A stretch of 64,000 nucleotides of DNA. Origin: Rhizaria sp. SCN 62-66. Taxonomy: Eukaryota. The DNA lies in the NCBI GenBank assembly GCA_001724265.1, contig MEDY01000064.1, forward strand, positions 62,001 to 126,000. Direction: 5' to 3'. Position 1 is the stretch's first letter. Each line of letters opens with the position of its first letter. The translations under genes and the position numbers were made by a program. Below, piece after piece: positions 3,734-50,767 of this stretch. The notes beneath the pieces were generated by a model. It worked only from the letters and a program-made list of their open reading frames with translations. It did no database searches and had not been told where the DNA came from.

Positions 3734-5248
3734 ATGTCTTCCCAGCCGTCGCAAGGTCTGCAGTCCGCGAAGGACGCCGTGCTCGTTAAGTCCGTCGAAG
3801 TCGACCACAACCTGCCCCCCGTCAAGGGCTACGACTTCAACAACGGCATCAAGTACGAGGAGATTGTCAAGGCCATGTTCACCACGGGCTACCAGGCCAC
3901 TCACGTCGCGCGCGCCGTCAAGATCATCAACGACATGCTCGACTGGCGTCTGTCGGACGTGCCCATGACGGCCGAGGAGAAGGAGGAGGAGGCCGCCCTG
4001 CCCGAGGCTGACCGCACCGACCGTTCCCAGGTCAAGGCGACGGTGTTCCTGGGCTACACCTCGAACCTCGTGTCCTCGGGGCTGCGCGAGTCGATCCGCT
4101 ACCTGGCGCAGCACAAGCTGATCTCGTGCATCGTCACTACGGCGGGCGGCGTCGAGGAAGACTTCATCAAGTGCCTCGCACACACCCACGTCTCCGAGTT
4201 CACCGCCAACGGCGCCGAGCTCCGCAAGAAGGGGCTGAACCGCATCGGCAACCTCGTGATTGCGAACCAGAACTACTGTGACTTTGAGAACTGGCTCACG
4301 CCGATCCTGGACGTGATGGCCGACGAGCAGAACAGCGGAAAGGTCAAGTCGTGGACGCCTTCTGACATCATCCGCCGCCTCGGCAAGGAGATCAACAACG
4401 AGGAGAGCATCTACTACTGGTGCTACAAGAACGACATCCCGGTCTTTTGCCCTGCGCTCACTGACGGCAGCATGGGCGACATGCTCTATTTCCACTCGTT
4501 CAGCAAGCCCGGCATCACGGTCGACATCCTCGAGGACCTGCGCCGCGTCAACAACATGGCCGTGCAGGCTACGCGCTCCGGCATGGTCATTCTCGTACGT
4601 TGCGCACTATATTCACCATTAACGCTGTTTAGCAATGATCTTTTACTTGTTATTAGCTCTTTTATGCTATTTTATGTTTCTTAAGTTGTCGTGAATTTCA
4701 TTTTAGGTTCTCATGTGGTCTAATCTTTGTTGCGATATGTTTTTTTATTTTGTTTTGCCTACTTACAGGGCTCCGGCGTGATCAAGCATCACATCTGCAA
4801 CGCGAACCTGATGCGCAACGGCTCCGACTACGCCGTCTACGTCAACACCGCCCAGGAGTTCGACGGCTCCGATGCCGGCGCCACGTACGTACATTGCGCA
4901 ACACACTTATTTATGCGTACCTTATGTCTTGTCTCTTGCATCGACTGATTGGTTTACGTGTCTGTGTTTCAAGCAAGATGTTATCTTATTATAGCTTTAT
5001 CCATTTCATCATTTGTTCCCCCAATCTCACGTTTATTCTTCTTTATCTCCCTTGCTTGCGTGGACCATCACAGTCCCGACGAGGCCGTCTCTTGGGGCAA
5101 GATCACTGCGGGCGCGCAGTCGATCAAGGTTTTTGCCGACGCCACGATTGTGTTCCCGCTCATGGTGGCCCAGACCTTCGCGCGCGTCGTCGAGGAGCGC
5201 AAGGCCAAGGCCGCCGCTGAGGCCGCCGCCGCTGCCGACAAGCAGTAA
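3734..5248 (+). CDS. DHPS: Deoxyhypusine synthase (383 aa, 3 exons)
   Basis: Exons 3734-4594, 4769-4884, 5074-5248 with GTACGT..AG introns. Motifs: [60 protein letters not shown], catalytic-Lys motif EAVSWGKI. Stop TAA. Confidence 0.97.
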
Positions 5249-5701
5249 GCGAGCAGTAACCAACACAACACAATGATCCGTTGGACAACAAGCATCTATG
5301 GCTGCGCGCAACAGGTGAGAAAGTGACAAGCCAGTGAATAATGACTGCTTAGTTGCTAATCTCAACTGTTAAATCGCTGTTTGCCTCATGCTGTCGATGG
5401 GGGGAAGATTGAGTTACGTTTGAGTTTGTCTGAGATGGGTTATGTTATCTAGTAAGTACAGTATTAATTGAAACAGGACACGTAGTCACTGAGAGTCAAG
5501 TAATTATTAAAAATAAAAAACACACATTTTAACACATGACGCCCGTCAAAACTGATGTTGTATTGTAATTACATGTACAAGTGCGATACATGTGAGCTTC
5601 CCGCCGGTTTCTGCGTGTTGATTGGCCTGCAAATCACAGCATGGAGTTGCTGCCATGTTTATATCAGGTCAAAAACTGTTTTTGTGCCAATTGACATCGT
5701 T

Positions 5702-6951
5702 TCACTGTGCGTCAGAAGCGCAGGCGTTCTTGGCGCCGTAGTACGCGTCAATGGCGGCGAACACGGACTTGAAGTCGACATGCTTAGTCATCACGTGGCA
5801 CGTGCGCACTGCACGCTCAATGTCCTGCGTAAATATTGATAACAAAGTCGGATATAGAGTATTGTTAATAATAAAGTTGGTAATCTCAAGAAGTATGCGA
5901 AGACGAATACATTCAGACAGAAGCACAAACGTGCACAATTCCAAAATGTTGTTGGTGAGCAGACTGCGTAACCCCACGTACCTCCTCGGTCATGACGAGC
6001 GACGTCTTCGAGGGCTTGCGGAGCGCGCAGGAGATGGCGCACGCGCCGCCGCCGTCGTCCTCATTGCCGTCCTTGTCCGTGATCACTGGCACGAAGCCGT
6101 ACGGCGTAAAGTTAACCTTACTCGCCGTCACATTGCAGTCACCGCGGCTGCCGCTGCTGGTGTTGGCAGCGGCAGCCTCAGCAGTAAAGAACTTGGTGAC
6201 GTACTCCTTGCACTTGTCGTATGTGTGGTAAGATACCTTGCGGGGGATCTTGTTGAAAACGGCGCCAAGCACGGGGGCGCCGAAGCGCGCAAAGTACTCG
6301 CGGGCCATCACGGCCGAGTCGATGGCGTTGCCGACGCCGGGGCGGGAAACCAGCAGCACGGGCGCGCCGAGGAGCTGGGCAACGGAGCCGTTTGAGGTGC
6401 CGGTGCAGGAGCCGACGCCGGGGTAGCCCACGCCGTCGACAACGACCAGACGGCGGCCCTGAACGAGTGCAAGCAACGAATAAAATCAAGCAAATGCACG
6501 TTCAAATTGGTATTTCGTGATGATAAAAAGTAGCTAGTCATGAAGGTGTGTAAAGATGCATGAAGACAGGACAAGTTATGCACATTGGAGCGAGGCGAAA
6601 CTAAGAACGTACAGGTGTGTTGGCGAGAGCGTCAACAGCGGCGCTTATCTTGGCGAGACGGTCCTCGGCGGAGCCGTGCTTGCCATCGATGACCTCCTGC
6701 GTGTAGCCGGGGCGGTACAGGATGGGTCCGGTGCCCTCGTGCGCGATACCCTCGGACTCGCACCACTTCCACAGCAGCTGCACGTCCTCGCACTGCGTGC
6801 AGGGCTTGATGTACGCCAGCTCCTCGGGCTTGTAGCCAAGCTGCAGGGCCGCGGAGAGGAGACCCATGCACACGGATGTCTTGCCGACGCCTGATTCGTC
6901 GCCGCAGATGCAGACGATCTGGGCACGGGATGAGGCAGCAGGGGCAGACAT
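5702..6951 (-). CDS. Stand-alone P-loop NTPase of the dethiobiotin synthase / phosphotransacetylase N-terminal (AAA_26-like) type (312 aa, 3 exons)
   Basis: Exons 6951-6613, 6458-5982, 5824-5702. Motifs: GDESGVGKTSVCMGL (Walker A), LAYIKP, VVVDGVG, VLLVSRPGVGNAID, LGAVFNK. Stop TGA. Confidence 0.8.
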
Positions 6952-7424
6952 CTTGGGGTTGAAGATATACGCGTAAAAAAGGCAAGCTATGTTAAAATTC
7001 CTTGTAGAAAGATTACAAAACAAACCACACAGTACAAAACAAATGTTTAATTTCGAGTTGACGATGAATTCTGGCTGGTTGACTTCCTTCTCAGAGCGAC
7101 CTCAATTCGCTCACAAAACGGTTTAACGGTTTGCAATCACAAAAAAAGCGAATGTGTGGTCGTGTCACTAAAGCACGATTTTCGCAACAGAAATCTGGTC
7201 TCTCAAGGCAAATTTGGGAAGAAGCAATGTGTTAATCAATTTACATAACATGGGTGTAGTTTATTTCAAATATGCTTTGTATTCGTTGGATAAACCTGAC
7301 CTGACGTATTCACAGCTTGGCCTTCCTTGGCCCGCTCGTAGCCTTCTTTCACATGCAGCACACAATAAACGGACACAAACCAGCATAACAAAACACTAGA
7401 CGCACATCAAGCACAGAATAAAGC

Positions 7425-8173
7425 TCACTCCGCAGCCTTCGCCGCGCCAGTAGGCGCGGAGCCTTCAGCAGCAGCGCCAGCAGCAGCGCCAGCAGCAGGG
7501 GCGGCAGCAGGGGCGGCAGCGGGAGCAGGGGCGGTGTTGTTCGTGCCATTGGGGTCACCGCCCGTGGTCACAACAGCAGCGTTGTCCAGCGCCCGGCACA
7601 CAAAGCGCATGTCGGCTTCGATGACCTGGGACCAGTTGACGACGTCGCCAAGCTCCTTGAGCACGAGGTTGAGGTCTTTGTACATAGCGAGCCAGCGCTG
7701 CGACTGGCGCGCGAAGGCGGCCGCTTGCGTCTGCAGCACCTTGGCCTCGGCGTCGAGCTTCTGCTGCGCGGTGGAGACCGCGAGGGTAGACTAAAGCAAC
7801 AAGGAGCATCGCAAAGGCAAGCGGACAGATTGTGTGATGTTAGTGGAGTTCGTTAGAGATGAGATGCGAATTACAAAGAACATGAGAGCGAGGTCTTAAG
7901 ACGTACACGAGAGACGTCAGTGAGAATGCTTGAGGTGACATTCTCCACAGCGGCCATGGCACCGGCCTTGACCTTGTCTGTGAAATCGAAAAAACATCAG
8001 GAGAGAGTGAACAGAGTGTGAGATCAGTGGCTCAACAAGAGCACGCGAAGCAGAGACAGGATAAAAGGCTTGATGAAAAGAGGACGAAGCGGGGTGAGAG
8101 TGCACGTACCAAGATCGCGCCGGCGCTGAGCGGAGCCGCGGCGGTGCTCCTTGACAATATCGTTGAACGACAT
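7425..8173 (-). CDS. BLOC1S1: BLOC-1/BORC subunit 1 (GCN5L1 family), 166 aa, 3 exons
   Basis: Exons 8173-8110, 7977-7907, 7790-7425. Sequence IVKEH...QQKLDAEAKVLQ...FARQSQRWL...LKELGDVVNWSQVIEADM. Stop TGA. Confidence 0.88.
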
Positions 8174-8504
8174 TGTCTGTGTCTACACGCGATCAGAAGA
8201 GACGGATATGAGACACGGCGACGTGGGTGAGATCAGCTTGAATCAGAGAGAGTCTAGATAGGGTATACCAAGCGAGAAGAACAAATTATTTAAGGATCCA
8301 ACAGTTTGCTCAAGTGTCTACCACATCAAAGCAAAAACAAGGCGTTTGACGACCAATAAGGTGTACATATGCTTCGTAATGTTGGCTAAATCAACGCTCT
8401 ACGAGGGACCGAAAAATACTCGCTCTTTCGCTCACTCATCATCGCTTCATCACAACCTTGCTTCGTTGTTTTGGCTAAGTATCTCAGTCCAATAAGGCAC
8501 CAAC

Positions 8505-10484
8505 ATGTCTAGGTACGTAATCGTTGTGATTTTGGGTGTTTATACTTGTTTTTTGCGTCATACCCACGTGTGCATCATTATCTATTCGCTCTTTCTTATC
8601 TGCGCTCACGCAAGCCTCATCTTGACTCGCCCCTGTTGCCTTCCCCGACATTTCACAGTGAGAACGACAAGTCTAAGAACTCTGACAAGAAGGGTACGTA
8701 CAAAGACTTATTACACATATGAATATGTTGCCATCTTGCTATTATACTCAGATTTCATTGCTGTGCACTCTCCTCTGACTTCCGCTGCCTCTTGTGGTTG
8801 GTCAGCCGTTAGAGATGTTCGCATCTTCGCACTCTCAACCCCCACGCTCATCTCACATTCCATCACTGTGCTTATTCTTTCACGTTCCTTCCACATCAAC
8901 AGAGACCGCCGCCGAGGCGATGATGGCGACCCTGCTTGCGGCGCAGAACTCGAGCGCGCCCAACGCGGCCGAGCTGCAGAAGATCATGCAGGCTCTGTCC
9001 ATGTCCACCAAGGCCCCCACCTCCGCGGGCGCCATCCCCGACGCGCACAAGTTCTGGGACACGCAGCCCGTGCCGAAGATGTCTGCCAAGATTTCTGAGC
9101 ACGGCCCGTTCGAGACCAAGACGGTGGCCGACGTGCGCGCCGAGCCCTACCCGCTCGTCAAGGGCTTCACTTGGGAGACGATGGATCTTTCGGACCCGGC
9201 CGCAATGACCGACCTGTACGTGCTGCTGACGGAGAACTACGTCGAGGACGACTCGGCGACGTTCCGCTTTGACTACTCGCGCGACTTCCTGAACTGGGCG
9301 CTCACCCCGCCCGGCTTCCTGCCGCAGTGGCACCTCGGCGTGCGCACCACCGACGCGCACAAGCGCCTCTGCGCTTTCATCTCCGCCGTGCCCGCCCGCA
9401 CGCGCGCCTACGAGAAGGAGTTCCCGGCCGTGGAGATCAACTTCCTGTGCGTCCACAAGTCGCTCCGCTCCAAGCGCCTCGCCCCCGTGCTCATCAAGGA
9501 GATCACCCGCCGCGTCAACCTCCAGGTCCGTCCCATGCGCATCACCACTAAACAAGGATGTCTCATTCTATTCGCAAGATATCGCGGATATATTCTAATT
9601 TATTATGCTTTTACATCATATTAAAGTGCTTTATCATTTCGTGATAACGATATATGTCATTGTATACTCCCCACACATATCTCACTTTCATCGTTTTCTT
9701 CCTGCCTCTTGCGCCGCCACCACAGGACATTTGGCAGGCGTCGTACACTGCCGGCATTGTTATCCCCAAGCCCGTGGGCTCGTGCCAGTACTTCCACCGC
9801 TCGCTGGACATCCAGAAGCTGTGCCAGGTCGGCTTTACGCGCCTGCCCAGCCAGGTCTCAATGACGCTGGCGCGCCGCATGTACGCCGTGCCCGCGACGC
9901 CTGCGCTGCCTGGCGTGCGCCCCATGGAGCCGCGCGATGTGCCGCGCGTGACGGTGCTGCTCAACGCGGCGCTGGCCGCGCGCAAGCTCGTGCAGGTGTT
10001 CTCGGAGGAGGAGACGGCGCACTGGCTGCTGCCGCGCGCGGGGGTCATCTCCAGCTATGTCGTCTGCAACGGCAAGGCCGCCGCCAAGAAGGACGGCGAC
10101 GACGCTGAGAAGGCTGAGAAGGCTGAGAAGGCTGACGCGGCTGAGAGCGCCGAGGAGGGCAAGGGCGACGAGGTGACGGACTTCTTCTCCTTCTACTCGC
10201 TGCCTTCGACGATCAGCGGGAACCCGAAGCACAACCTGCTCAAGGCGGCGTACCAGTACTACCACGCGGCCACCACGGTCGCGCTCAAGGACCTTATGAC
10301 GGATGCGCTGCACTTTGCGCACAAGGAGGGCTTTGACGTGTTCAACGCGCTCACGCTCATGGACAACAAGTCCTTCCTGGAGGAGCTCAAGTTCAAGGCC
10401 GGCGACGGATACTTGCAGTACTACCTCTACAACTGGCAGTGCCCCACCATGGAGACCGAGGACGTCGGCCTCATCCTCCTCTAA
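8505..10484 (+). CDS. NMT: Glycylpeptide N-myristoyltransferase (474 aa, 4 exons including 8-nt and 35-nt coding exons)
   Basis: Exons 8505-8512, 8659-8693, 8903-9525, 9726-10484. Motifs: HKFWDTQPVP, LLTENYVEDD, FRFDYS, EINFLCVHKSLRSKRLAPVLIKEITRR, GFDVFNAL, GDGYLQYYLYNW. Stop TAA. Confidence 0.97.
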
Positions 10485-11120
10485 GCGCCACACTGCGAAG
10501 CGTCGCACTGCTCGTCACGCGGAACAGCGCGGAAAAGCGCACAGCAGCGCAAGGCACCTGAGGTGAATGTAAACAGTGATTGTGAGCAGTGACTGTGACA
10601 CTCTGACTGAGCGTGAGCAAACAGGCTCAGACAACGGGCGAAGCAACCTGACTGAAGGCGTGTCTCAACTGGACACAATGAGGCTCGAACCCAGTGTCTT
10701 TATTGTGCCTTAGCTGTTGTTGCGGTGTACCGTTGTCGCCGAAGTAGTCCCGAGTACATGTGCATGTTGTCTGTGTGTGAGGCTACGCATGTACAAGTAG
10801 AGAAAGTGAATGATCGTAACAGTAGTAATAACACGAATTTTATACATTTAGTTTTCATTAATCTTGTTGTCGACGCGTTCTTATCATTCCATATGCAGGT
10901 AATACATGTACTGACTAATTCTTTCTACAACACGTTGCTGTATTGTCTCAATATTATATTCTTAATCATATTTAAGCAATGTTACGTTCATGTTTGTTGT
11001 TTGACCACAATTCGCTCCATCAGTGAGCATGTTGAAATGCACTCACGTCGTTGTCACTGTTGCCGCAGGTGTTCTTTCACGGGTACAAGTCCGAAGTGAG
11101 ATTCGCTCGGTTCCCACTGC

Positions 11121-11432
11121 TTACTGCTTGTTGCCGCAGCATGGGGCAGCCTCCTTCTCGCCGCACTTGCAGTTAGGGCCGCACTTGCAGTTAGGGCCGC
11201 ACTTGCAGGCGGCGCTCTTGTCAGCGCTGCCGCAGGTGCAGGGGTCGCACTTGCAGTTAGGGCCGCACTTGCAGGCGGCGCTCTTGGCGGCCTTCTCGGT
11301 GCCACAGAGGCAGGGGTCGCACTTGCAGTTAGGGCCGCACTTGCACGCGGGGTTGTGCGCGCTCTGCTCGGCGCCGCACTTGCAGGGGTCGCACTTGCAG
11401 GGGTCGCACTTGCACGCGGGGTTGTGGGACAT
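11121..11432 (-). CDS. Metallothionein (103 aa, 26 Cys, four tandem modules of three CxC plus a terminal CC)
   Basis: Repeats of CKCGPNCKCDPCxCG. No aromatic residues. Internal DNA repeats (gcacttgcagttagggcc). Stop TAA. Confidence 0.88.
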   Translation of the reverse strand: MSHNPACKCDPCKCDPCKCGAEQSAHNPACKCGPNCKCDPCLCGTEKAAKSAACKCGPNCKCDPCTCGSADKSAACKCGPNCKCGPNCKCGEKEAAPCCGNKQ

Positions 11433-12091
11433 CGCTGGAGGGCTAGGGTAGAGACCAGCGACGCAGGGGCGGAAATTACAAAATTAAAAAGTGATACGGG
11501 GTACAAAGAGGCCGTTGATGTGTGGGAAGATGTGTGAGAGTGAGATTCCGTGATCTAAGCAAGCAGGCATGCGAGCGGGAGGAGTTTGTGTGTGTAGATG
11601 TGACGCGGAGAGGAATGCATGTTTGACAAGGCAAATGCAACGGTTTGAGTGTAAAAACGGAGGATTTAGAGCGATGATCACAATATCAACTCAGATGCGC
11701 GTCGGATATTGTGAATGTGCCGGATTTGTTTCAGTATATGCGTGGGAAGGATTGGTGGAGGGGACATGGACTTAAAGCAAGACCCATGATGTCGGAAAAG
11801 CGCACTGCGGATGGCATAGCGAGTCCATAAACAATGATAAATGAAAAGAATACGGGCGCGCTTCGTGCTGTCACGGGTGAGTATGTTTCATTGTGCCTGA
11901 CGGTCCTGGTGCGGCGTGTAGCCTTCTTTTAAATCGGTTTCTTCCCGCTCCATACACGTGACTTCGCTTGACCGACGCAACCGTAACACCTTTCTCACAA
12001 CATACTAAGGGTATTACATGAGATAACTAAACCACACCAATATCTGCCAATTTTGTTAGGCTATAATATTTAAATTCTGTCGCTTTCAGAC

Positions 12092-13951: not shown

Positions 13952-14159
13952 GCAACCATGGTGCACGAGATAATCATTATTACATTAGCCTAAACAACCG
14001 AGTTATACATAGTCACTGAATTTATCGCCACTAAAGTGAGTCCAACTGCAAATTATATCGAATCTCTGTATTTTACATTGCTAAGTAGCCATAACTTGAA
14101 CTATATATAATCCGTTTTATATCTCGCACCTTCGGGAGTGACACACGCACCATCGTCCC

Positions 14160-16264
14160 TCAGAAGTCGAGGTACACGTCGAGCGGAAAGCTGACCATAG
14201 CTGCGAGCGCCTTGACGTCCTCGAGCGCGAGCGTCGTGGCAAGCTTCCAGTCCTCGACGGCCTCCGACCGGCCGGCGTCCGCGCGCACAAGCAGCTTGAG
14301 TCCCACGAGTCCTCGTAGACGCGCGGTCAGCAGCCCCCAGGGCAGCCCGGCCGCGGCGGGCGCGGGCCGCTGCGGGAACGGGTTGGCGACGAGCGTGGCG
14401 TTGTTGACGGCGCCCGTGTGCGCGTAGGACCCGGCGCCGAACCCGGAGTTGACGGTCTGTCCCTGCGGCGCCGTCACGGGCTTGCCGCAGAGCCCGAAGG
14501 CTAGCAGCGGGGGCACGCCGAAGTCGAGCAGCGCCGTCGTGACGTCGATGCCCGCCGTCGCCGCGCGCCCGCTGCTGGCCTGCGCGAGCGACGCCTCGAC
14601 CAGCGACGACGCGCCCGTGCCCGCGCCGCCACCAACGCCGCCGGTGTACTGATGCTGCGACAGCGAAAAGGATAGCGATTGCGACGGAGTGCCCGGTGCG
14701 TTCACATCGCCAGCACTTGCACCGCTGTTGTTGTTGCCCCCGTGGTAGCTGTTGCTGTTGCTGTTGCTGTTGCTGTGCGAGAGCGAGAGCTTGCGCGCCG
14801 TGAGCGGCGTCGCAAAGGCCCCCGCGACGGGCACCGCGAACACGCCGCCGAGCCCGCTCGCAGCCGACGCGCTGGGCGTGCCGAACGGCGACTGCGCGGC
14901 GCGCATCAGCCCGCCGCCGCCAACGCCGCCGCCGGGGGACTGTGCGCTGCGGCCGCCGCCAAGCCCGCCCAGCCCGGCCGCGAGCCCAGCCGTGACGCTG
15001 TTGCTGGCCGAGAGCAGCCGCAGCGGGTCGCCGCTGCGCGCGCTGGCCGCCGTGGCCGCCGCCGCCGCCGCCGCCGCGGCGACCGCGTGCGATCGCCCCG
15101 CCACCGTGGCGGTAAAGTTGACGAGGCTGACGTTGCGCGAGATGCTCTGGAAGATGGTCAGCAGGCGCTCCACGGGGAAGGGCTTCGCGCCCAGCAGCGC
15201 CGCCGATAGCACCGCGCGGCGCGTGGAAGAGAGCGCGTCGCTGCCGTGGCGCGCGCGGCGGCGCGGCGTCCCGGGGCCCGCGGCGCCGCCGCCGGTGGTG
15301 GCCGGCGGGAAGACGATTGCGTCGTCCTTGGGCGGGACGAGCGAGGCGAGCGTGGCTGCGAAGAGCAAGTACTGCGAGAAGAGCGGCAGCGCCAGCAGAG
15401 GCGCAATCGACGCGCTCGCGGGCAGCGGCGGCACAGGTAGCAGGGGCAGCAGCGGCTCGCCGACAGCGGGCGCAACAGCAGTGGAGCTCGCGCCTGCGTC
15501 GTTATTGCCGGCGCCGCTACTGCTCGACTTTGACTCGTCTGTGCCGTCGTTCAGAACATTAGCCTTTCCTGACTTGACTGTAGTCGGGGCTGACCGCAAC
15601 AAGCCGCCGCTATTCCGACCTTCTTCAGCGTCAGTCATCGCTACAGCACTCGCAGAGGCACTGCACTTCGACACATTCGCGCTGCTAGTCGCGGCCGCAC
15701 CGCCGTCGCCGGCCGCGGCGCCCTGCCTGGCCACGGCAGCCACAGCGGCGGGCGCGAGCGCGAAGACGCTGAGCACGCCCGCGAGCTGGGCCTCGCGCTG
15801 GTACAGGCACTGCGAGGCCGCCGTGACCAGCGGCGCGAGCGACTACCACAACACTGGCGGCAGCGCGCGCGCGGGCAGGAGCCGCGCCACCGCCGCTGCG
15901 ACTGCAGCAGGGTCTGCGTTACTGGCGTCAAACTCGATGTCCGGGCGAGCGTTCACACTGGACGAGTTACCACTGCCGCCGCTGCTGCAGCTGCTTGTGC
16001 TGTTTGCAGTAGCCGCGATGGAGACCGCGGCTTGTGTGTAGTGGTACGCGTACACGCACGCCGCAAGCGCTGGCAGGAGCGTGGTGGTGCTGAAATACAG
16101 CTCCCGGACGTCGTTGCAGCCGAGCGAGCAGACCGACAGCGTGAAAGCCACAAACGCGCGCACCACGGGCGGCTGCACCAGCGCCGACAGACGCAGCGCG
16201 GGGCCGCCCGGCGGCGCCAGCAGCGGGGGCAGCGTCGGCAGGACTAACGCAATCGGCGATGCAC

Positions 16265-16360
<96 letters not shown>

Positions 16361-17622
16361 GTTGTGACCACTGTTTGCGTTCGTGCCAGCTGACGACGGC
16401 GACGACGGAGCAGCGGCGCTTGCAGAGGACAACAAGGCTGACGGTGACGACGGTGTGGCGGGGCGCGATGCAAGAGTGCGACTGTGTGCCGGCGGGGTTG
16501 CGACGACACCGGCGATGGTGAAAGAGCGCGCCGAGTGCGGCCGCCGCGACTGCGACTGTGCCAGCTGCTGCTGTTGCTTGAGCTGCTCGTAGGCGGCCGA
16601 GTACGTCGGCAGCAGCTGTAGCAGCACGGGCAGCAGCGACGCCGGCGGGGCCGCGAGCGGGAGCAGGGGGTCCTGAGTCTGCAGCTTGCGGGCAATGATG
16701 TCAGTCAAGGCGTCTTCGGAGTAGGCAGGGAAACGTAGCGGAGTCACCTGCGAGAAAGAAAAAACACAAGGGTAAAATAATTAAATAAGACTTGTTTCCG
16801 ATACACAAACAAAGTTCCTGTTGTCCAAATAAACCCGTGAGATGCACATTCTTGCATTTGTCTCTGCGTACGTACCTCCATGCCGATGTCTTCCCCGAGC
16901 GAGGGCCAAATGCCGCGTGAGATAAACACAACGCCAATTGGGGCCGCCAGCACGTCGGCTAGCCGCACAAGCTGAGCGAGCATCGAGCCCAGCAGCGGCG
17001 CCACCGACGCCGCGCCGCCGCCGCTGCCGCTGACACCGCCGCTGTTACTGCCACCGAGGCGCCGCAGGCGCTGCGCGTCGTCGATGACGATGTAGAACGG
17101 ACTCGTCTCGCACAGCAGCGGTGGCGGCGCAGGGCGCGCGTTAGCCCGCGCCGCGGTGGCCGTGTCGCGCGCGGCGGCGAGCAGCGCGATAAGGTCGCCG
17201 ACGCGGTCCGGCTGCCGGTCGCGGTGGTTGCGGAAGTCGCCGTAGTCGCCGTCGACCAGCGGGGCCGCGGGATCCAGCAGCGCCGCCGCAACGGCCGCCA
17301 CGCGCGGGGCGGCGCCGCCAAAGTAGGGCAGCATGTCGTCGGCGAGCTGGGACAGCAGCGCGCGGTCGGAGCGCGCCGTGGCGAGGTCGAGGTGGCTGTG
17401 GGGCACTTTCAGCGCAGACAGAACGCTGCGGGTGAGTGCGGTCTTGCCCGTACCGCCGCGGCCGTAGATGTGCACGCACCGGGTCACAAGCGCCTTGCTG
17501 CTGAGGAGCAGGAGAAGGGAGTCGACCTGGTCCGAGCGGTGCGGCCACTGGGAGCTCAGCGCGGCTGCTGTCGCACTCAGGTTCATGTGCGACGAGCTGG
17601 ACGCAGCCAGTTTGGAAGACAT
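14160..17622 (-). CDS. ORC5: Origin recognition complex subunit 5 (~1110 aa if an in-frame TAG and a 1-nt frameshift are bypassed)
   Basis: Exons 17622-16876 and 16747-14160. Motifs: WPHRSDQVDSL, IYGRGGTGKT (Walker A), YIVIDDAQRL, LRFPAYS, CNDVREL, LW*SLAP..LYQRE, LPLFSQYLLFAA, LLGAKPFPVERLLTIFQSI, VSFPLDVYL. The frame breaks at the edge of the (AAC)31 tract near 16360. In-frame TAG at 15845-15843. Stop TGA. Confidence 0.85.
16266..16363 (-). repeat. (AAC)31 trinucleotide microsatellite inside ORC5 exon 2 (poly-Asn), with one imperfect unit
   Basis: Perfect GTT units at 16266-16358, then GT, then one more GTT. Confidence 0.95.
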
Positions 17623-17850
17623 ACACAAGGTTAGAACACAGAAATTTATGAGAATAAAGAAGCTGGCATGTGAACATACATATCAAAATTTCACTTAAAT
17701 TGACGATGATACCAGCGAGTTGGAGTTTGTCTTGTGTCTAACGGTCGGCGGGCAGAACGATGACCGCGTCGGGCGAGGGCGCAAAAAATCGTAGGCAGAG
17801 CAGACTGATGGCGTGTTCAAACGCTTGCTGTACGGAAACCATTACTCAAA

Positions 17851-22851: not shown

Positions 22852-24484
22852 TCACCGCAGGAGGTCGGAGACGGCCTCGGACATGTCGCGGCCGGGCCCG
22901 CCCTTCTTCTTGCCGTCGTCCTCGTCGTCGTCGTCGCTGTCGCTCATCTCGAACTCGCCCAGCATCACGCGCTTGATCTTGAGCAGCATTGCCACCGTCC
23001 ACGAGTCCAGCGGGTACGTCGCGTTGAACTCGCCGCACGTCTTGGTGTACGCGCGCACGCCGCTGGCGCCCTGTTGGAAGGCAGCCATGAGTTTCTTGAG
23101 GATCTCGCGCTCCTGCGACGCGGCCCACTTGGCCGACACGGCGCTCAGCACGTCGTCGTAGAACTGCGCGTTGGCCACGTCGTCCTGCATCGCCGAGTCG
23201 ACGAAGATGCACAGCTGCGCACGGAAGCACGCCGTGGTGATCTCCATCGGCGCGTTGCCCTCGACGACCACGGCCTTGAAGATCTCGGCGGCCTTCTTGT
23301 AGTTGCCGCGCTCAGCCATGTACCGGCCCTGCGTGGCGTGTGATTGTGATGCAGCCGCACACAAAAAGAGGAATACGTGCGATAAAATCGCATTGTCGAG
23401 GAGACAGAAGAGAAACACAAATGAGAGTATGATTGTGAACAAACACGCTTACAAATAGAGATAAACGTTACTTGTTCATAAGTTGCTATGATGAGCTATC
23501 TTTTGTCGCTGTCAAAACGTACCCGCGAGAGCTTGCATTGCGCGGCGGTGCTTGCAGCGCCCGCGGCGGCATATGCACCCTCGGCCGCCTCCCATGCGTC
23601 GATGGTGCCCTTGAGGTCTCCGGCGTCCTCGCACATCTGCGCCATCTTCTTGAAGATGATTCCCGCGCCGGTGAAGTTGTTCTCGCCCTGCTTCAACACC
23701 GCGGCCTCCACCATCGCAGCCTGTGCGGTCGCAGTGGGAGGACGATGACGCATTGCGCCGATTTTAGTTCAGTTCAGTTCAGTTGCGCGTTGAGGTTGAG
23801 TCAGGAGGGTGTCAATGAGTGAGAGATAAGATAAGGATGAAAAAATGGCATAGAACAACTAAGTGTGAGTGAAATGGATCTGATGGTCCGCATGCAAACT
23901 CATGTCGTTTCAACACATATCGGTGTTGGGTTTTAGCACCAAAGAGCGATATCCGAGTCTACTGCGCTCAACAAACAAGAATAATACATTATGAAGCATA
24001 AAGGCAGACATGTACCTGCGCCCTCTTGAGGTCGACGGCCTCAAGGATGCCACCGAGCTCCTCGTACTGCTTGGCAAGCTTGGCGTTAGAGCCGTCGCCG
24101 TTAGGGATGAGGTGCGTCTTGTAGACGTCGATCGAGGCCTCGAGCGCAGTGGCCGCCTTGTCAAAGGCGTCGCACTGCATGTACTGGTTGACGGCGCGCT
24201 CGAAGTACTCGATGGCGTCTGTGTAGCGCGACTTGCCCTTGAAGACGTTCTTCGAGGTCGCAGACGACTTGCCTTTCTCAAGATACTTGTCGCCAAGGGC
24301 CTCCGTGTCCACCTATGGGTAGTCGGAGGTTGTCGGAGGGCAAAAACAGGGTTGCAAAGGGGATGCATGTAAGCGAAGGGTCGGGGTTTACGGAAGGCGG
24401 GATTCAAAGAAGTGTATATGTCTTTATAGACTGATAACATGTGCAACGTACGGAAACAGTGCCGTTCTTGGCAATTGTAGTCAT
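22852..24484 (-). CDS. Divergent alpha-SNAP-like NSF attachment protein (334 aa, 4 exons)
   Basis: Exons 24484-24452, 24312-24016, 23720-23523, 23328-22852. Helical repeats (YTDAIEYFERAVNQY, GNYKKAAEIF). LDSWTVAMLLKIKR resembles alpha-SNAP LDQWLTTMLLRIKK. Acidic tail ending DLLR. Stop TGA. Confidence 0.75.
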
Positions 24485-30969: not shown

Positions 30970-32502
30970 ATGTCGTCGGCGTCGACTGCCGCATCCGACG
31001 CGCATATCACGTCTTCCTCAAGCGAACCTGAGTTCCGCTTCACTGCACTGCCGACTTCAGCCGCGTTTCCGAACTCCCTCGCACTGTCGGACGTGCAGGG
31101 CTTGCTCGCCAAGTGGGGCGTCGGCCAGTCGCTGTGCTGCGCCAAGTTCCGCTACGACGTGCCCCTCGCGCCTTCCAACGCCGCGCAAACGGCGCAGTTC
31201 ATCCGCGACCTCTTCGCGTCGCCCGCGTTCCTTGCATCCCCCGCCGCGCAAGTCGCGCACTTGCGCCCCGCACCCACGCGCGCCGGCGTCGTTACCAAGG
31301 GCTGGGTCCGTCTCTCCTGCAGTGATACTGCCACGGGCGCGTCTTCGTCCGGCCCCTCGTGTCTGCACGGGGACGCCCCGATCATCCTGACTCCGAAGCC
31401 GGCGATGGTGACCTCACTGTCATTTCTGGACCCGCTCGTCGAGGCCGGCCTTGTGTCCCGCGACTGGGACGCCTCTCGCACAGTAATCGCTCCCAACTCC
31501 AGCTCGGGCGCTCTCGCCAAGCAGCAGAAGCAGCAGCCGCAGTCGGCCGCGACGCCGGCCGCCGCGGCGCAGACGTACCTGGACCTGTCTCAGTCGGTTA
31601 CGGGCGCGGGCCGACTCTCGCAGCGCTTCGAGGACTTCATCGGCTCGATCCGCGTCGCCGACGGGCTGCGCGAGTGCCTCTTCGACTCGTCGTCGGAGCA
31701 CTACGCGCTGCTGTCTCGGCAGACGCGCGCGGAGCTGCTGCCTGCGCTGCTGGCGCTGCTGGCCGCTGGCTCGGGGCTCTCGCAGAGCGACGACGCTTTG
31801 CTGCCGTACAGTGACATCGCGCGCCGCCTGTACCGCGACCTGGTGTGCCCGCGGCGCAATCCGCACACGGGCCAGATCGAGGTCGCCAGCGCTGTCTTCG
31901 CCGTCACTGGGGGCGCCGTGAGGGTGGACGAGGACAGCTTCGCGCTCACCGCGGCCGCGTGCTCGGCCAACGCGGCCGCGAAGGCTGAGGCCAAGGCCAA
32001 GGTCAAGGCTGAGGCTGAGGTTGCTGCGACTGGGGCTGCGGCTGCTGCCAAGAAGGCTGAGGCTGATGGCGAGGCGGAGAGCGAGGGTGCGTCGCTTGTT
32101 AGCTTTGTGGGCGACGGTGATCTCACCAACGACGCTGACGCTAATCCCGACGCATCTGTGGCAACGAAGCCCACGGCGACTGCGAGTGCGGGTGAGACCA
32201 AGGCTGTTGCGCCCGCGTTCTACGCGCCTCTGTTCCCCCCCGCCAGCCCGGTCGGCTGGACTGGCGGCGCCTCTCTGCCCGCCACTGCTGACGCCACCGC
32301 TCCCGCGCCCGCGCTCTCCGCTGTGCCCGGCGTGTCCGTGACCGTGGGTACCGCTGGTGCGGGCGCGAGTGCGGGTGACCGTGGGCGGCCGGGACAGGCG
32401 ACCGTCGGCGCGCCAGGCCCGCTGGACGCGTGCTGGGTCAGTGTGACGCCGGAGACTAAAACGGTGGCGTACCTCTACTTCAAGCACTACGCGGTGTATT
32501 GA
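30970..32502 (+). CDS. CFAP300: Cilia- and flagella-associated protein 300 (C11orf70/DNAAF17), 510 aa with Ala-rich insertions
   Basis: Motifs: LLAKWG..AKFRYD..FIRDLF, LRECLFDSSSEHYALLS..RAELL, LSQSDD..YSDIARRLYRDLV..RRNPHTGQIEVASAVF. Stop TGA. Confidence 0.82.
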   Translation: MSSASTAASDAHITSSSSEPEFRFTALPTSAAFPNSLALSDVQGLLAKWGVGQSLCCAKFRYDVPLAPSNAAQTAQFIRDLFASPAFLASPAAQVAHLRPAPTRAGVVTKGWVRLSCSDTATGASSSGPSCLHGDAPIILTPKPAMVTSLSFLDPLVEAGLVSRDWDASRTVIAPNSSSGALAKQQKQQPQSAATPAAAAQTYLDLSQSVTGAGRLSQRFEDFIGSIRVADGLRECLFDSSSEHYALLSRQTRAELLPALLALLAAGSGLSQSDDALLPYSDIARRLYRDLVCPRRNPHTGQIEVASAVFAVTGGAVRVDEDSFALTAAACSANAAAKAEAKAKVKAEAEVAATGAAAAAKKAEADGEAESEGASLVSFVGDGDLTNDADANPDASVATKPTATASAGETKAVAPAFYAPLFPPASPVGWTGGASLPATADATAPAPALSAVPGVSVTVGTAGAGASAGDRGRPGQATVGAPGPLDACWVSVTPETKTVAYLYFKHYAVY

Positions 32503-35157: not shown

Positions 35158-35636
35158 CGCGCGACTGTAATGATGTGTGGTGGCGAGGGCAAAGAGTCAG
35201 TGACGAAGTGAGTTGGACGATTAGGATGATGACAATGCAGCGATGAGAAAACATTATATAGGAGTATAAATACAAACACGTTGTTTTAGAAAACAGTGCA
35301 CATTGACTGCACGTAATGAACCTAGAGTTTACTTTGCTGCTTTCGAATACGTCCTGTCCAAAAGCTTTCAACGATCTAGGTCTCGTTGGGTCTTGCGAAA
35401 TGCACGGCAAAAAAACATGTCTTGTGCGAGGTCTAGAATCCGTCAACAGCAGTGTGTGCATTTTGCCACAATAATTAGAGTACAATCTAGTATTATACAT
35501 TCATTATGCATTGCATTTCCTTTGTGATGCTGATCATATCTTTCTTTTTGTGTGGCTCTGTCGCCGCGTCACTTCAACCTCCCACGACTTGCACTCGACT
35601 CTGACTTGCATCCTTCCTCGCAGACACATACGCTCA

Positions 35637-38722: not shown

Positions 38723-41700
38723 TCATTTTTTCCCTGCCGTCTCGCTCTCAAGCCGCCGGAAGAACCCCGCCAGTTTCCCGTGTACCTCTCCGTAACCAGC
38801 GCCGCGCACCATGTCCCTCGCGATCCACCCCGGCAGCAGCGCAGACACCGCTGGGCTCGAGTACCGGCTGTCGAGCAGCACGATCGCGGCGTAGTCGCGC
38901 GCGTGGCGCACGGCACGGCCAATCGATTGGTTCACAGAGCGCATGCAGAGGTTCTCGTAGTAACGCTCGCCAAGCGACTTGGGATTGGCGTTGCTCGCTG
39001 AGCTCGGATCGCTCGACAACTGGTGTTGCTGGTCCAAGCGACGCATTTTTTCCCGCAACTCGGGGTCATGACGATTCGGATACGGCATTCCAACCACAAC
39101 AACACACCTACACAGACATATTAAGACGAACAAAACGATTTTTTTGAAAAATGTTAGGTTCTTTGGTGCAAAAACGTAACTTGCATGAGAAGACAATATA
39201 AACAGTTTGTGGGACATACCGTGCTAACTCATCAGAGAAGTTGATGCCTTCACTCATCTTACCACCCATTACGCAAAAGAGCATGGCACCCGTCTGGGAT
39301 TGTGGCGGCGCGTCGACCTGCGTCTTCGATTGCAACTGGCGAGCTGCGACTGAGTATGCGTCGAATAGTGCTGCAAGGTCACTTGAGTCACGAGGCTCAC
39401 GGAAGATCTGAGATTCGCAAAATAGATAATGGGATCAAAAGTACATGAGAAATAATCGCAATTGGTACTATGTGATTATAAAGTGTTATGAAAAGGCAAA
39501 CCTACCTTCTTTTTGCGCTCAACCGTATCCCACATCGATACACCATCAGTAGCACCTGCACCCGCACCAGCTGGCACCATACTGCTGCTGACAGTGTTGT
39601 TGATTTGTGCCACAGCCGCACCGGTCGCCGTGTGCGTCTTGAGGTACTTCACCGCCTGCTGCTCAAACGCGTACGACGGGAAGAACACGACAACGCCGTG
39701 TGGCACCACACGCGTCAGATTCGCCAGTGTGGCCCCCAGCTCGCGCAGCAGTACAGGATCCCCGCGCTTGGCAAACGAGAACGACAGCGGCGTATGTGTA
39801 GCGGCATGCAGCGGGCCGCGCGAGAGGGCGGCAACAAGGACGCGGTCCGGCGCAATCACGTGACCGCACGCAAACGAGGTGATACGCTTGGGCGGAAGAG
39901 TTGCTTCGCGAGGCGTGGCAACACTCGTTGCAGCTGATAAGCTCGTTGGCGTTGCAGCGTTAGTGGTGCCCTCAGCAGCACTCGTTGTCTCGGACGCAGC
40001 CACTGGTGCTGATGGCTGAGTGTCGCCCCGCAACTGTTGTTCCAACAGTGCAAACGGTTGCATTGTGCCACCCGCAAGTACGATTGCGCGCGCCTGTGAC
40101 GCGACAGTCTCAAACGCAGGCCCCGCATTGAGCGCCACAAGCCGCGCAGACCACAAGGCTTTAGGGTTCGCCCGCGCAGTCGCTGGTGCAGGCGAACTTG
40201 CACTGTTCACGCCAGTCGTCACAGAAACAGTGGGTAGTGGCGTTCGGCGCAGCAAAATGCGTCCGTCGCTGTCTGGGCTGCGGAGGGAGCGAATGAGGTC
40301 AACTGTGGCTCGCGCCGCCGTGATCTGGAAAAGGCGCGCTGCTGCGGGCGTGTTGACTGAAAATAAACGATGAAGAGATGGTAATTAGACAAGAAATAAA
40401 TAAGCGATGTACGACTTATAAAACAAATTTGGATGGAAATGAAATCATAAGAATTTGAAAATGAACGCACCTTCTGGTGCTACCCAGGCCAATACATCGT
40501 CTTTTTCCTCGACAGTATTCGTAACAGCGTTGTTGTTGTTGGCATCTGGCTCCTGCTTCGTGAGAAACAAACCACGCGACTTGCCCGGCTCTGTCGGATC
40601 GCAAGGCTTCTTGGTGCTAATGCGATTGGCCAGCCCTGTTGCTGCCACGACGTCGCTCGGTAGCGCCTTCAAAGTTGCAGCGTTGATGCGAGCAACAACA
40701 CTGTCTTCGTCATCGAGCGCGCGACAGCTGCGAACATTGCTGTCGGTGGCAAGACGCGCACGCTTTGATGCGGGACCAGCGCTTCCAGTCTCATTGATAG
40801 TATCTTTTGCAGAAGGGAGTCCAAACCATGACGCATCGTCGGTAGGAGCACTTTGCGTACTCGCAGTCGTATTGATGATGCAACGAGTGGAGTCAATGTG
40901 CTCGATAAAACCGATCAATTTCCGCATTAACATCGATTTGTCGACCCAAGCACATAACGTGAACAGGTTGATGTTGTCGATGTTGGCAGCTACGCTCAGA
41001 ACATTGGGCCGGACAAGCAACGCTGTCTCATCTTCGTTGCTGCTGATACCCAACTCGGCATTAACATCTGTGCCCGCGCGCGTATCAGTGGTACTTAAAC
41101 TCACAGCAGGAGAACTCAAACCGCTTGCACTATCGTCTAAAGGCCTCCCATCCACTCCGCACCACTGGTCACTGGTCAAAAGATCAAACAATGCGCTCAC
41201 AACATTGACGAGCTGCGCAATGTACATGCGATTCTCCGCGCTCAGCCTCGAACTATAGCGCGCCTGATACGCCCTCAGCTGCCTGCGCGCGCAAAAGAGC
41301 TGCCCTGCGGTCGCGCCCGCGCTAGAGAGTGAGTGAATCGTCTCAACCAGATTGTGCGCCTCATCAACGACGATGACGTTGCCCTTAAGCGGGATCCCCA
41401 GCGCCTCGCGCGTGGGCCCGTGAAACAGCGCGGCGTAGGGCGCCAGCACCACGTCGGCCTCGGCCACGGCGTCACGCGACGCGTAATACCCGCACGCCTT
41501 GGCTGCAGTGCCCAGCGCGGTGATTTGCTCCAGGTCCATGACTTCGCTGGTAATAAGCTGGCGAAACGAGAACTGTGACTGCGGGCGCAAGTATGGGCAG
41601 CCACCTGTTTCGCGAGCCCCAGTTGCACTGTCACTAGCAGTTAAGTCACTCTCACCAAGGTCATCTTTAGTGATATTGCGGCTCTGAACGACGCCGTTTT

Positions 41701-43372
41701 GGGACGTGATTTTCGCAACCTTGTTTGGCTTTGACTGGCGGAGCTCGCTGCACTTGTCATTAATCGCTTCGGCCGAGCCAAGCGCCCTCACCGCAGGGTT
41801 CGTGCACAGCACAGCACGCGAGCCCAGCGACACGACCCGCAGATCCGTGTAAGGAGCCGTCGCCACGGCGGATCCAGGGGGAAACACACCATTAACGACT
41901 TTGCGCACTTCGCCAATCACCTGCGCAATCTGGCTGTGCGTGCGCGAGCAATAGATCAGCTTAGGCGTCATCGGTAGCAGCGACTCGGACGTCGCGCCGT
42001 CGCGCGTCAACGGCTTGTGTCCGCTGAGGTGGCCGAGACACTCCAGAACAGGCTTTAACAGCGCGCCAACGGTTGGGTATTGCATGATAACAGCGGATGA
42101 CAACGCGCCTACATTCGTTGTATCCCTGTCCTGGTCACTGTCACGGTCAGCGACGCAGTGGTTGCTCACAGGGCTCGGGTTGGTGATGCCAAGCGCCCGG
42201 TAAGCACTTTCGCGGCCTTCCTCTTGGGCCCGCTTGGTTTCCTCCGCATCGGTCTTGGCGCTGGCCGCCGCAGCGTCAGCCTCAGCAACGGCCTTGACCG
42301 CAGCCGCGACTGTGGTGATGATAGCGAGCGCAGCGTCGGTGTCGTCTGCGCCCGTGACCGTGCGCAAGAGCCACAGGTTTAGCCCCGCGTGCGTCGCGGC
42401 CGCGGCAGAAACAAACCCCGCGGCTGCGGTCATCGCGGCCGACGCGGCGGCGGATGCGGCGGCGGCGGCATCGGTGGCGGTGACCGCCGCTGCAGCGGCG
42501 GAGACCGATGCCATTGCCGCCGCCGTCGCCGATGAAAGCGGCGAATTCAGAGAAAGACCAAGAGCGCTGGCCAGCGACCCCATCGAGGAGCCTGCACCTT
42601 GAGAGTCCTCGGACATCGCAGTGTCTGCAAGAAGATACGCCGCGTCGCTGATTGCGCTCTCTACCGCAATCGCAGGCGCACCACTCGCTGCGTTTTGCCG
42701 ACCCTTGTTAATATTGTTCTTGCTGTTGCCGAAGCTGGTGTTCAGTCGGTACGAGGACCCCTCCGTGCGCAGGTCGTCCGCAATCTGCGCGAGTGTCCCG
42801 TGCCCGCCCGCGGAGCTCGCGCCGGCACAGTCGGCCACGAGGGGCGCACGCGTGTTGCGAGCGGCGACGAGCTGCTGCCGCACATTGCTGCCCAGGCGTT
42901 GCAGCGCACGACGCACCAGTGCGAGCAAGTGCAGGCGCTGGGCGCGGGTCTCTGCCTCCTGGTCCGCGACGGACTCGAAGAGCCAGTCGGGGATATCGCT
43001 GTCAGTAGATGATGATGATAATGAGGATGTGTGGGTCGAGGAGTCAGCACCATGAGTGCTTCCGGGCTATTGTAATACTGGGTCTATAGCGTTGCCATAC
43101 GCGTAGGCAGGAAAACGATGGAAAATCCAGTGCAGCGCTGCGCAGAGGATGGAGAGAGACTTGCCGGTGCCGGTGGGCGACTCGACAATGCCCACTGTCC
43201 CCGAGTCGATTGCGGTGTAGATCGCACGCATCAGGCCCGTTTGGACATTGTAGGGTGTCGAGTACGCAAACGGGATTGCGGGTGTGTTTGACGCATCTGT
43301 AACTGTTTGCAGCGGGGGCGCCGCCGATGTTGGAACTGGCGGTCCGTTAAGGGCCGGGGCGACTCCAGACAT
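38723..43372 (-). CDS. DDX11: DDX11/CHL1 Fe-S DNA helicase (1441 aa if the in-frame TAG at codon 102 is read)
   Basis: Exons 43372-40471, 40356-39506, 39407-39220, 39107-38723. Motifs: [29 protein letters not shown], four Fe-S Cys (LCTN, DKC, GCPY, ACGYY), [41 protein letters not shown]. In-frame TAG at 43069-43067. Stop TGA. Confidence 0.92.
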
Positions 43373-49053: not shown

Positions 49054-49458
49054 GGACTACATATGCGGTGGAGCAAATCAAGAGCAGTCCAAAGCAAGAA
49101 ATGGGTGGGTCATCAGGAGCACAGTTGAGGTGACTGAAAAGGGTGGGAACGTAAATATGGACGTGTATAAATTATAAAGGACACAAGCGCAACTTAATTA
49201 AAACTCGGCTTCAAGTTAGCCAAAAGCTTTAATGTACATACAAATGAATACAAAGGCGTCGTGTTAGTCTAGATACTGAACCGTCAGTGGGTGAAATTTG
49301 TTGCTTGACCGCTCACAGTCACGGTCACCAGGACAGCTCACAGTCAAACCAGTCTTCGACTGCATCACAGCTGACTGAATTGGAAAGGGTACATTTACGG
49401 TTGTGCGAGCCAATGATTATACACTCGACTTGAGCAACATGTCACTCGCGGTCACAAC

Positions 49459-50767
49459 TTAAATGAGCTGAGAATACTCGAGAGCGAGCTTGGCACCGAA
49501 CTTGGCGTTGTTCTTCACAAGCGCAATATCTACAAATCAAAACAAAAACAAATAAACACGCATTGTGTTAGCACAACGTATCCAGAAATGCTTAGCTACA
49601 TATGAAATCTATGTTTACACAACGATTAGGAGTAAACATGTCAACGTACTGGAGGTGAGCGACTCGCCGCCCGAGAGCTCGTTAACGCGCTTAAGCAAGA
49701 ACGGGGTCGAGTCCTTGCCAATGATGCCCTGCTCGACGCTCTCCTGCAGCGCCTGCGTGATAGCCTTGGTGACACCCTCAGTGTCGGCGGCCTCCTCCTT
49801 GGGGATGGGGCACGCGAAGAGCATACCCGACTGGAGGTTGAGAAGCGCGTTGGCCACCATCATCTTGGCGCCCTGCAGCGGCGTCGCAATCGTCAGCGGT
49901 GACGCGCAGCCGCTGTCAGGAGTGAAGAACGCCGGGAAGATCTTGCTGCCCACGGTCGCCACTGTCACGCCCTGCGTCTCGAGCACCTCGAGCGTCTTGG
50001 GGATGTCGAGGATGCTCTTGACGCCGGCGCAAACGACCGCCACTGGCGTGCGGCCCAGCTCGGAGAGATCCGCCGAGATGTCCATCGTCGCCTCGGCGCC
50101 GCGGTGCACGCCGCCGATGCCGCCCGTGACGAAGACACGGATGCCCGCGAGGTGCGCGAGGTACATGGTCGCCGCGACCGTGGTGGCGCCGTGGCCCTTC
50201 TCCGCCATCACGATCGGCAGGTCGCGGCGAGAGCACTTGCGGCACTGCGCGCCATGCTGCGCGAGTGTCTTCAGGTCGGCGGGGTCTAGGCCGATGCGGA
50301 CCTCGCCGTGCAGGATTGCGATCGTCGCGGGGACGGCGCCGTTAGAGCGAACCTGATAGAAAGAGATGTGACGCGGAGATGTGAGTTTACGATAAACAGC
50401 TCAGGTGAAACAAGACGATCGTATATGGGCTTAAAGAAACAAAAGAGATACATGTGCAGAGTGGTCATTTTTTTGGCTTGCAATTTGATAATCTAGAACG
50501 TACGACGTCCTCGACCTCGATGGCAGTCTGCAGGTTCTGCGGGTAGGGCATGCCGTGGCTGATGATGGTCGACTCAAGCGCGACAACGGGCTTGCCAGCA
50601 CGCAGAGCGGCAGAAACCTCGCGGCTAAAGATCAGACGGACGTTTGCCTTGGGTTGGAAGCGGCGGCGGGCAGCGCAGGGCTCGGCCGTGACGGTCGCGG
50701 GAGCTGTGGCGACAGGAGTCGACTGCATCATACCGAGAAGCACGTTAAGACGCTTCTGAGGCTGCAT
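49459..50767 (-). CDS. psuG: Pseudouridine-5'-phosphate glycosidase (PsuG/IndA family), 345 aa, 3 exons
   Basis: Exons 50767-50504, 50352-49650, 49529-49459. Motifs: [87 protein letters not shown]. Stop TAA. Confidence 0.95.

Follow-up and report, generated by a model that had tools for sequence, protein, structure and literature searches.

In-frame TAG codons in a 64-kb stretch of Rhizaria sp. SCN 62-66: gene damage, leaky termination or a changed code?

Where UAG alone has been given a new meaning, the codon is found in numbers. In the rhizarian exLh, which reads UAG as Leu, 384 in-frame UAG codons were counted in 71 genes, and in Iotanema spirale, which reads it as Gln, 204 were counted in 126 genes; these codons stand at conserved Leu or Gln positions, and the genes whose ends were tallied (71 and 119, respectively) stop at UAA or UGA (56 and 15 in exLh, 104 and 15 in Iotanema), according to the counts reported in PMC5304391. 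The phyllopharyngean ciliates with reassigned UAG are known from metagenome-assembled genomes in which 78-91% of genes carry the codon, thousands of conserved sites inform the assignment and suppressor tRNAs are predicted in two assemblies (PMC11687900). Here we consider a 64,000-nt stretch of Rhizaria sp. SCN 62-66 (contig MEDY01000064.1, positions 62,001 to 126,000; hereafter the window), in which one TAG lies in frame within the gene for ORC5 and another within a gene for a DDX11/CHL1-like helicase. A sequence-only reading of the window had proposed that the organism reads UAG as an amino acid or is at an early or leaky stage of reassignment. What stands of this proposal is the ORC5 TAG, which falls in a conserved block, recurs in a contig of an RNA library and is followed by a long open frame; the rest is weak, as the DDX11 TAG may be intronic, the tally of stop codons is not significant, ORC5 bears a second lesion and TAG is rare throughout. 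A stretch of 64 kb is not enough to establish that the organism reads TAG as an amino acid.

The window resembles exLh and Iotanema in the absence of TAG at gene ends, in the excess of UAA over UGA ends and in an RNA-supported in-frame TAG within a conserved gene, and it resembles the phyllopharyngean ciliates, as described there, in its metagenomic origin and in keeping both UAA and UGA as stops. Unlike exLh and Iotanema, it holds at most two TAGs in about 20 genes, with the secure one at a variable position, and its TAG-bearing genes number at most two, whereas in the ciliates they form the large majority given above. Between 1.6 and 5.4 UAG codons per gene are found in the known reassignments covered by these two sources (PMC5304391, PMC11687900), as compared with at most 0.1 here, a density lower by a factor of 16 or more than in the described cases. 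An established reassignment is excluded. Nor do many UAG codons fall at one conserved residue, as they do where reassignment has been recognized: the window offers a single secure TAG, that of ORC5, at a position occupied by K, S, R, R and A in homologues, and an ambiguous one in DDX11.

The TAG in ORC5 and a second break in its frame

The C-terminus of the predicted ORC5 protein, DVYLDF, pairs with the KYLYDF ends of its homologues, and the TAG falls inside a conserved block. A HMMER search with the ORC5 segment returned 11 matches, namely the open reading frame (ORF) of the window itself and ten distant ORC5 proteins that match in the C-terminal domain only, with none between 100% and 49% identity. 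In a MAFFT alignment of hand-picked fragments from five of the seven matches retrieved, LW-TAG-SLAPLVTAASQCLYQRE lies opposite KLYKFIAPE..LLLRE, KLHRHIQAY..LYLRE and similar stretches of the five distant proteins, which places the TAG opposite K/S/R/R/A in a helix block of the form L-[YHLW]-x-x-[IL]..LY.RE whose L and R are invariant. Since the codon stands inside this block, a residue is expected there; since its own position is variable, the alignment is silent on which residue that would be. Two other approaches were uninformative: in a word-based search for homologues around the TAG none of the 8000 scored candidates passed, low-complexity words having probably swamped the search, and in a search of the PDB the ORC5 alignments end short of the TAG. 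Introns that would excise the codon were considered and rejected: with a GC content of 0.68-0.78 and no consensus 5' site they do not look like introns of this window, and some of them would take conserved residues with them.

Both TAGs are where the sequence-only reading had put them, on the minus strand at 15845-15843 and 43069-43067, and the one in ORC5 is borne out by independent data. A polyA RNA library from a different study (run X4) yielded a 334-nt contig that covers 15667-16000, repeats the TAG with 0 differences and has a depth of 4.3. No variant row exists at 15843-15845 in four runs, of which X2 and X3 gave identical figures and are possibly one data set; none of the listed contig pieces over the TAG comes from X2, X3 or X5. 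Furthermore, recorded ORFs of 492 and 538 aa (2+2 contigs) start past the TAG, and none reaches upstream of it. The RNA-library contig, the lack of variants and the recorded ORFs argue that the ORC5 TAG is not an assembly error: it is genuine, it is present in a contig of the RNA library and it lies in a conserved block. As for the nature of that library, X4 contigs cover four parts of the ORC5 gene, and the eight listed X4 pieces skip both mapped introns of the range examined in the runs (3000-22999), which fits RNA without proving an RNA origin.

ORC5 had also been taken to be otherwise intact, and this part of the proposal fails. Exon 1 joins exon 2 in phase, and the exon 2 block RFPAYSEDALTDII / LRFPAYSEDALTDIIA aligns in MAFFT with HFPEYSKEELVEILA and HFDAYSEDQMRRILE of homologues (although BLASTP of exon 2 against the homologue P0010 gave nothing meaningful); the next conserved block, VVRAFVAFTLSV... 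/ PPVVRAFVAFTLSVCSLGCNDVRELYF, matches P0010 with E=7e-4 in a frame other than that of exon 2. The codon-usage profile shifts frame near 16390, where an (AAC)n repeat begins. A total of 170 GT/GC..AG pairs could bring the frame back, none of them with the consensus 5' site of this organism; the best-looking one, 16394-16264 (GTCAGC..AACAG), is 131 nt long with a GC content of 0.40. No contig piece among the 32 listed (3,478 more exist) spans the repeat. The frame change could be (i) a 1-nt deletion, (ii) an odd intron or (iii) an assembly fault. ORC5 thus carries two features that break its reading frame, the TAG and the frame change, within about 550 nt, a combination more in keeping with damage to the gene than with a change of code.

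The DDX11 TAG and the stop codons of the window

The second TAG had been described as an interruption after which the conserved DDX11 frame resumes directly, and this description does not survive alignment. Matches to the structures of FANCJ, XPD and CHL1 stop at ..CAALHW, 19 residues 5' of the TAG, and restart about 370 residues further on at IYCSRTHSQ, so that the TAG falls within an unconserved linker rather than a conserved frame. When proteins of up to 317 aa were searched for short ORFs spanning the TAG, the only one found was a recorded ORF of 101 aa that ends exactly there (P0132, 1 contig). With the TAG replaced by Q, L, K, E, Y, W or S, the first exon gave no exact match in any of the seven versions, a weak negative because a mismatch anywhere else would equally have prevented a match.

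The TAG may instead be removed by splicing. Ten in-frame GT..AG pairs enclosing it were listed, and one, running from 43100 to 42999, was judged intron-like in its length and sites. This candidate, GTATGG...CTACTGACAG, has a 5' site that differs from the GTATGT of the verified DDX11 intron 4 at +6 only, and a 3' end resembling those of both introns of the class-III aminotransferase gene (OAT), ..ATCTACAG and ..CTGACTACAG; DDX11 introns 3 and 4 are likewise about 100-110 nt long. It shares with spliceosomal introns of the 3n class its GT..AG borders, its length of 102 nt, a single in-frame stop, its place in an unconserved linker and a GC content below that of the flanking exons. Scored over its 33 codons with the TAG left out, the segment reaches 3.16, a value between the two classes: 6% of 899 coding windows fall below it and 20% of 311 intron windows exceed it, or roughly 2:1 in favor of an intron. 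Taken together, the sequence features fit a putative intron about as well as a coding segment, and the chance that the segment is spliced out would be about even or slightly better.

Introns of this organism are AT-rich, of the GT-AG type and about 100-260 nt long, and they break up the long ORFs of the window. Their 5' sites are unusually uniform: among the 16 that were read, G at +5 and T at +6 occur in all 16, the sequences being GTACGT in 11 and GTCCGT, GTGCGT, GTAAGT, GTAGGT and GTATGT in one each, a set in which 11 introns were picked up by a pattern search restricted to sites of this kind, and so biased towards them, and 9 were read directly at ORF breaks, with 4 shared.

Genes were identified from Pfam matches, three-frame reading and a codon-usage score, and the 18 models that are complete in the window were then rebuilt. 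The independent rebuild arrives at the tally already claimed for these genes, 12 ending in TAA, 6 in TGA and none in TAG. As a control we used the next three in-frame stops 3' of each real stop (n=54), which comprise 28 TGA, 21 TAA and 5 TAG (9%); at this frequency the probability of finding no TAG among 18 terminators is 0.17. TAG makes up on the order of 20% of stops in many eukaryotes, and with usage set at this value the probability falls to 0.018. The absence of TAG terminators from 18 genes is not significant and is suggestive at best. The base after the real stop is G in 14 of the 18 genes and a purine in 17. All ORF pieces that do end in TAG halt just within introns, in the genes for malate synthase (37835), a SNAP-family protein (23496), an AAA_26-like protein (6601) and DDX11 (39108). 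The long malate synthase ORF halts in this way inside an intron beginning GTACGT; what looks like a TAA stop further on shares letters with a GTAAGT 5' site, and the true end follows ..PAKL at 38502. Two further introns lie upstream of the true end of DDX11.

An unbiased scan for stops with 40 open codons on either side yielded 268, among which the six with the most coding-like flanks are five TAGs and one TGA. These six include the ORC5 and DDX11 sites, three stops antisense to known genes (NMT, HemK-like and the ORF at the left end) and a TAG at 25851; on the sense strand of identified genes, the flanks look coding at the ORC5 and DDX11 TAGs only. The scan upholds the statement that no in-frame TAA or TGA interrupts an identified gene, and the remark that interior TAG is very rare is upheld as well, with none in an ORF of 4241 codons and at most 2 in roughly 16,000 codons (an upper bound, from summed ORF pieces), or in at most 2 of about 20 genes. 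The TAG at 25851 was not counted as a third interior TAG, as the pieces flanking it have no Pfam match at E<=0.01.

Weighing the readings

The odds that we attach to the readings are judgements, not computed posteriors, and they give little prior weight to a type of reassignment that has yet to be described. We regard it as a somewhat better than even bet that the code is standard and that ORC5 is damaged, leaky or poorly expressed. The organism would then use the standard stops with a strong preference for TAA or TGA followed by G. The ORC5 TAG would be a true premature stop that has gone to fixation in the population and is carried by the transcript, and the gene copy would either have been disabled recently or yield full-length protein through low-level read-through only. 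The DDX11 TAG would be removed together with its 102-nt in-frame intron, and the missing TAG terminators would reflect the sampling of 18 genes. Under this account ORC5 resembles a disabled unitary pseudogene, in which one nonsense codon is joined by a frame disruption while the gene is still open and transcribed; a pseudogene is expected to have at least two ORF lesions, and ORC5 has two, although the second may turn out to be a peculiar intron or a fault of the assembly.

Several observations weigh against the standard code with a damaged ORC5. Unlike a disabled pseudogene, ORC5 is as a rule an essential gene, and there is no sign of a second copy. On the 3' side of the TAG, 560 codons run without a stop up to the TGA and retain the ORC5_C domain (E=1.9e-16), and on the 5' side the Walker-type motifs appear intact. 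The X4 depth at the TAG is similar to that over the adjoining NMT gene (4.3 versus 3-5.7), so there is no sign of transcript decay; with contigs from an RNA library, an intact ORF and an intact domain, nothing points to the relaxed constraint or the lost expression of a pseudogene. The stops that interrupt identified genes are all TAG, never TAA or TGA. The base that follows them is a pyrimidine (TAG-T in ORC5, TAG-C in DDX11), as opposed to the purine at 17 of 18 real stops. Finally, the DDX11 segment departs from the other introns of the window, with G at +6 where all 16 introns read have T and with a GC content above most (0.48, at the top of the 0.29-0.49 range of 13 introns).

A nascent or leaky stage of UAG reassignment would account for some of these points and is less likely. 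UAG could be a leaky stop, at which near-cognate read-through at the weak TAG-pyrimidine context supplies full-length protein in amounts sufficient for scarce replication factors such as ORC5, and DDX11 as well if its TAG is exonic, while strong TAA-G and TGA-G signals are selected at true gene ends. The contrast between T and C after the interior TAGs and the purines (G in 14 of 18) after the true stops speaks for this reading, as do the neighbor-like depth of the ORC5 transcript and the preservation of its downstream ORF and domain. We nevertheless consider it unlikely: neither site has a known read-through motif, judged against CARYYA-type and CUAG-type contexts, two sites are too few for a context rule, the frame change in ORC5 is left unaccounted for, and a leaky stop fixed in an essential gene would be unusual. 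Alternatively, UAG might be in the course of a nascent capture that affects this codon only, having been purged from gene ends, being unread by eRF1 and serving as a rare sense codon through a suppressor tRNA, in which case Gln or Lys would fit the ORC5 position best. The lack of TAG among 18 ends would be explained, and the 12:6 ratio of TAA to TGA resembles the 56:15 of exLh and the 104:15 of Iotanema, as tallied in PMC5304391. The ORC5 TAG stands where the block needs a residue and is present in the RNA library, and interior stops in genes are TAG only; the recorded ORFs on 2+2 contigs all begin past this TAG. Such a capture is doubtful, however, as at most 0.1 TAG per gene is found here against at least 1.6 in every case described in the sources cited above, the 4241-codon ORF is free of TAG and the stop tally is not significant. 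At the ORC5 site itself the variable K/S/R/R/A gives no residue signal, and the frame change would need a separate cause. The window has no tRNA gene detectable by ARAGORN and no Rfam match, and the eRF1 gene is absent from it. Lastly, the TAGs, the frame change or both could be errors of assembly or consensus. The frame change does border on a microsatellite that exceeds 100 nt, which short reads resolve poorly and which the listed contig pieces fail to span. However, an error is very improbable, given that the RNA-library contig of a different study repeats the ORC5 TAG exactly, that the four runs (two of which may be the same) show no variant there and that ORFs starting past the TAG were recorded from 2+2 contigs; in addition, a de Bruijn path through a 3-nt repeat would be expected to keep the phase of its flanks.

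The window, its organism and the meaning of the TAGs

The window is a eukaryotic metagenome contig with a GC content of 57% (52-69% by 4-kb bin), and the features discussed here are collected in Table 1. The public runs that carry it stem from several studies dated 2015-2025; they sample bioreactors, wastewater, activated sludge and fuel cells, and include one polyA metatranscriptome. The DNA runs X1-X3 contain 93-98% of the sampled words. The organism recurs nearly unchanged across these studies, with 0 differences in most contig pieces. The isocitrate lyase (ICL) of the window has a best match of 64% identity among 5.8 billion proteins, the best named one being that of Spongospora (59%), with chytrids and stramenopiles at 55-59%; since this enzyme is at most 64% identical to anything, the organism, an uncultured wastewater protist, is without a close sequenced relative. 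Scans with ORC5 gave 258 pattern matches in metagenome contigs and 224 in genome contigs, none of which was confirmed, and a scan of metagenome contigs with an ICL of 62% identity (P0019) gave 63 loci, the best of them 64% identical to the ICL of the window and none from this organism.

Table 1. Positions of the genes, codons and repeats discussed, numbered from the first letter of the window
Feature	Position	Strand	Basis or remark
ORC5 gene	14160..17622	-	AAA+ domain in exon 1; intron 16748-16875; Pfam AAA_16 E=8.5e-13, ORC5_C E=1.9e-16
ORC5 in-frame TAG	15843..15845	-	context TGG TAG TCG (VLW*SLAP)
(AAC)n microsatellite	16262..16372	-	first unit irregular (CAC AAC AC AAC...); ORC5 frame change; >100 nt
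DDX11/CHL1-like helicase gene	38723..43372	-	at least 4 exons; DEAD_2 E=1.7e-40; Helicase_C_2 E=2.7e-26 in last exon
DDX11 in-frame TAG	43067..43069	-	context CAA TAG CCC (PVLQ*PGS)
Candidate in-frame intron, 102 nt	42999..43100	-	GTATGG...CTACTGACAG; contains DDX11 TAG
Deoxyhypusine synthase stop TAA	5246..5248	+	Pfam, three-frame reading
AAA_26-like gene stop TGA	5702..5704	-	Pfam, three-frame reading
GCN5L1/BLOC1S1-like gene stop TGA	7425..7427	-	Pfam, three-frame reading
N-myristoyltransferase (NMT) stop TAA	10482..10484	+	Pfam, three-frame reading
Metallothionein-like gene stop TAA	11121..11123	-	Pfam, three-frame reading
ORF 12074 stop TAA	13949..13951	+	no Pfam family
ORC5 stop TGA	14160..14162	-	Pfam, C-terminus match to homologues
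Rab-type GTPase stop TAA	19127..19129	+	protein ends ..SCCK
HemK-like methyltransferase stop TAA	20208..20210	-	Pfam, three-frame reading
SNAP-family gene stop TGA	22852..22854	-	Pfam, three-frame reading
ORF 26858 stop TAA	30068..30070	+	Cys-rich membrane protein, no Pfam family
CFAP300 stop TGA	32500..32502	+	Pfam, three-frame reading
Isocitrate lyase stop TAA	33052..33054	-	Pfam, homology
Malate synthase stop TAA	38502..38504	+	after second intron 38251-38386; protein ends ..PAKL
DDX11/CHL1-like stop TGA	38723..38725	-	Pfam, last exon
Class-III aminotransferase stop TAA	46451..46453	+	Pfam, three-frame reading
ORF 46975 stop TAA	46975..46977	-	no Pfam family
Indigoidine_A-like (pseudouridine-5'-phosphate glycosidase) gene stop TAA	49459..49461	-	Pfam, three-frame reading

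Some further features of the window deserve mention. The genes for ICL (minus strand) and malate synthase (plus strand) adjoin at 33052-38504 and are divergently transcribed; in some amoebae and metagenome proteins of the ICL match list, the two enzymes form a single fused protein. The C-terminal AKL of malate synthase is presumably a peroxisomal targeting signal. From 51275 to the end of the window at 64000, the plus strand is occupied by the 4241-codon open frame, which continues past that end and has a codon-usage score of 962; it matches no Pfam family at E<=0.001 and would encode a giant protein of unknown kind. A small Cys-rich gene at 11121-11483 (minus strand) encodes CKCDPCKC-type repeats, matches the plant-type metallothionein family weakly (Metallothio_2, E=1.9e-06) and rests on three tandem DNA repeats of 66-72 nt. 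At 25481-26079 (minus strand) lie three short ORF pieces with coding-like codon usage, two of them parted by the TAG at 25851-25849 and the third read in a different frame. The last of them is reminiscent of the C-terminal tail of a Ty1/copia Pol, although Pfam gives no match, and the three may be the remains of a degraded mobile element. A direct repeat of about 110 nt and about 85% identity (24765-24875 and 26275-26385, 1512 nt apart) brackets unassigned ORF pieces.

If the standard code holds, the lesson is a practical one: a TAG or two in frame and a few stops counted on a single contig are no warrant for applying a non-standard translation table to an uncultured eukaryote, as in-frame 3n introns and frame breaks at microsatellites can mimic recoding. 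If, as we think unlikely, the organism instead stands at the earliest stage of codon capture, with UAG gone from gene ends, inefficient as a terminator and present as a sense codon about once per 10,000 codons, it would represent an intermediate that theory predicts and that has so far been unseen in nuclear genomes, the described cases all being past that step. The recurrence of this organism in bioreactor and wastewater data over a decade (2015-2025) makes it possible to follow up on either prospect.

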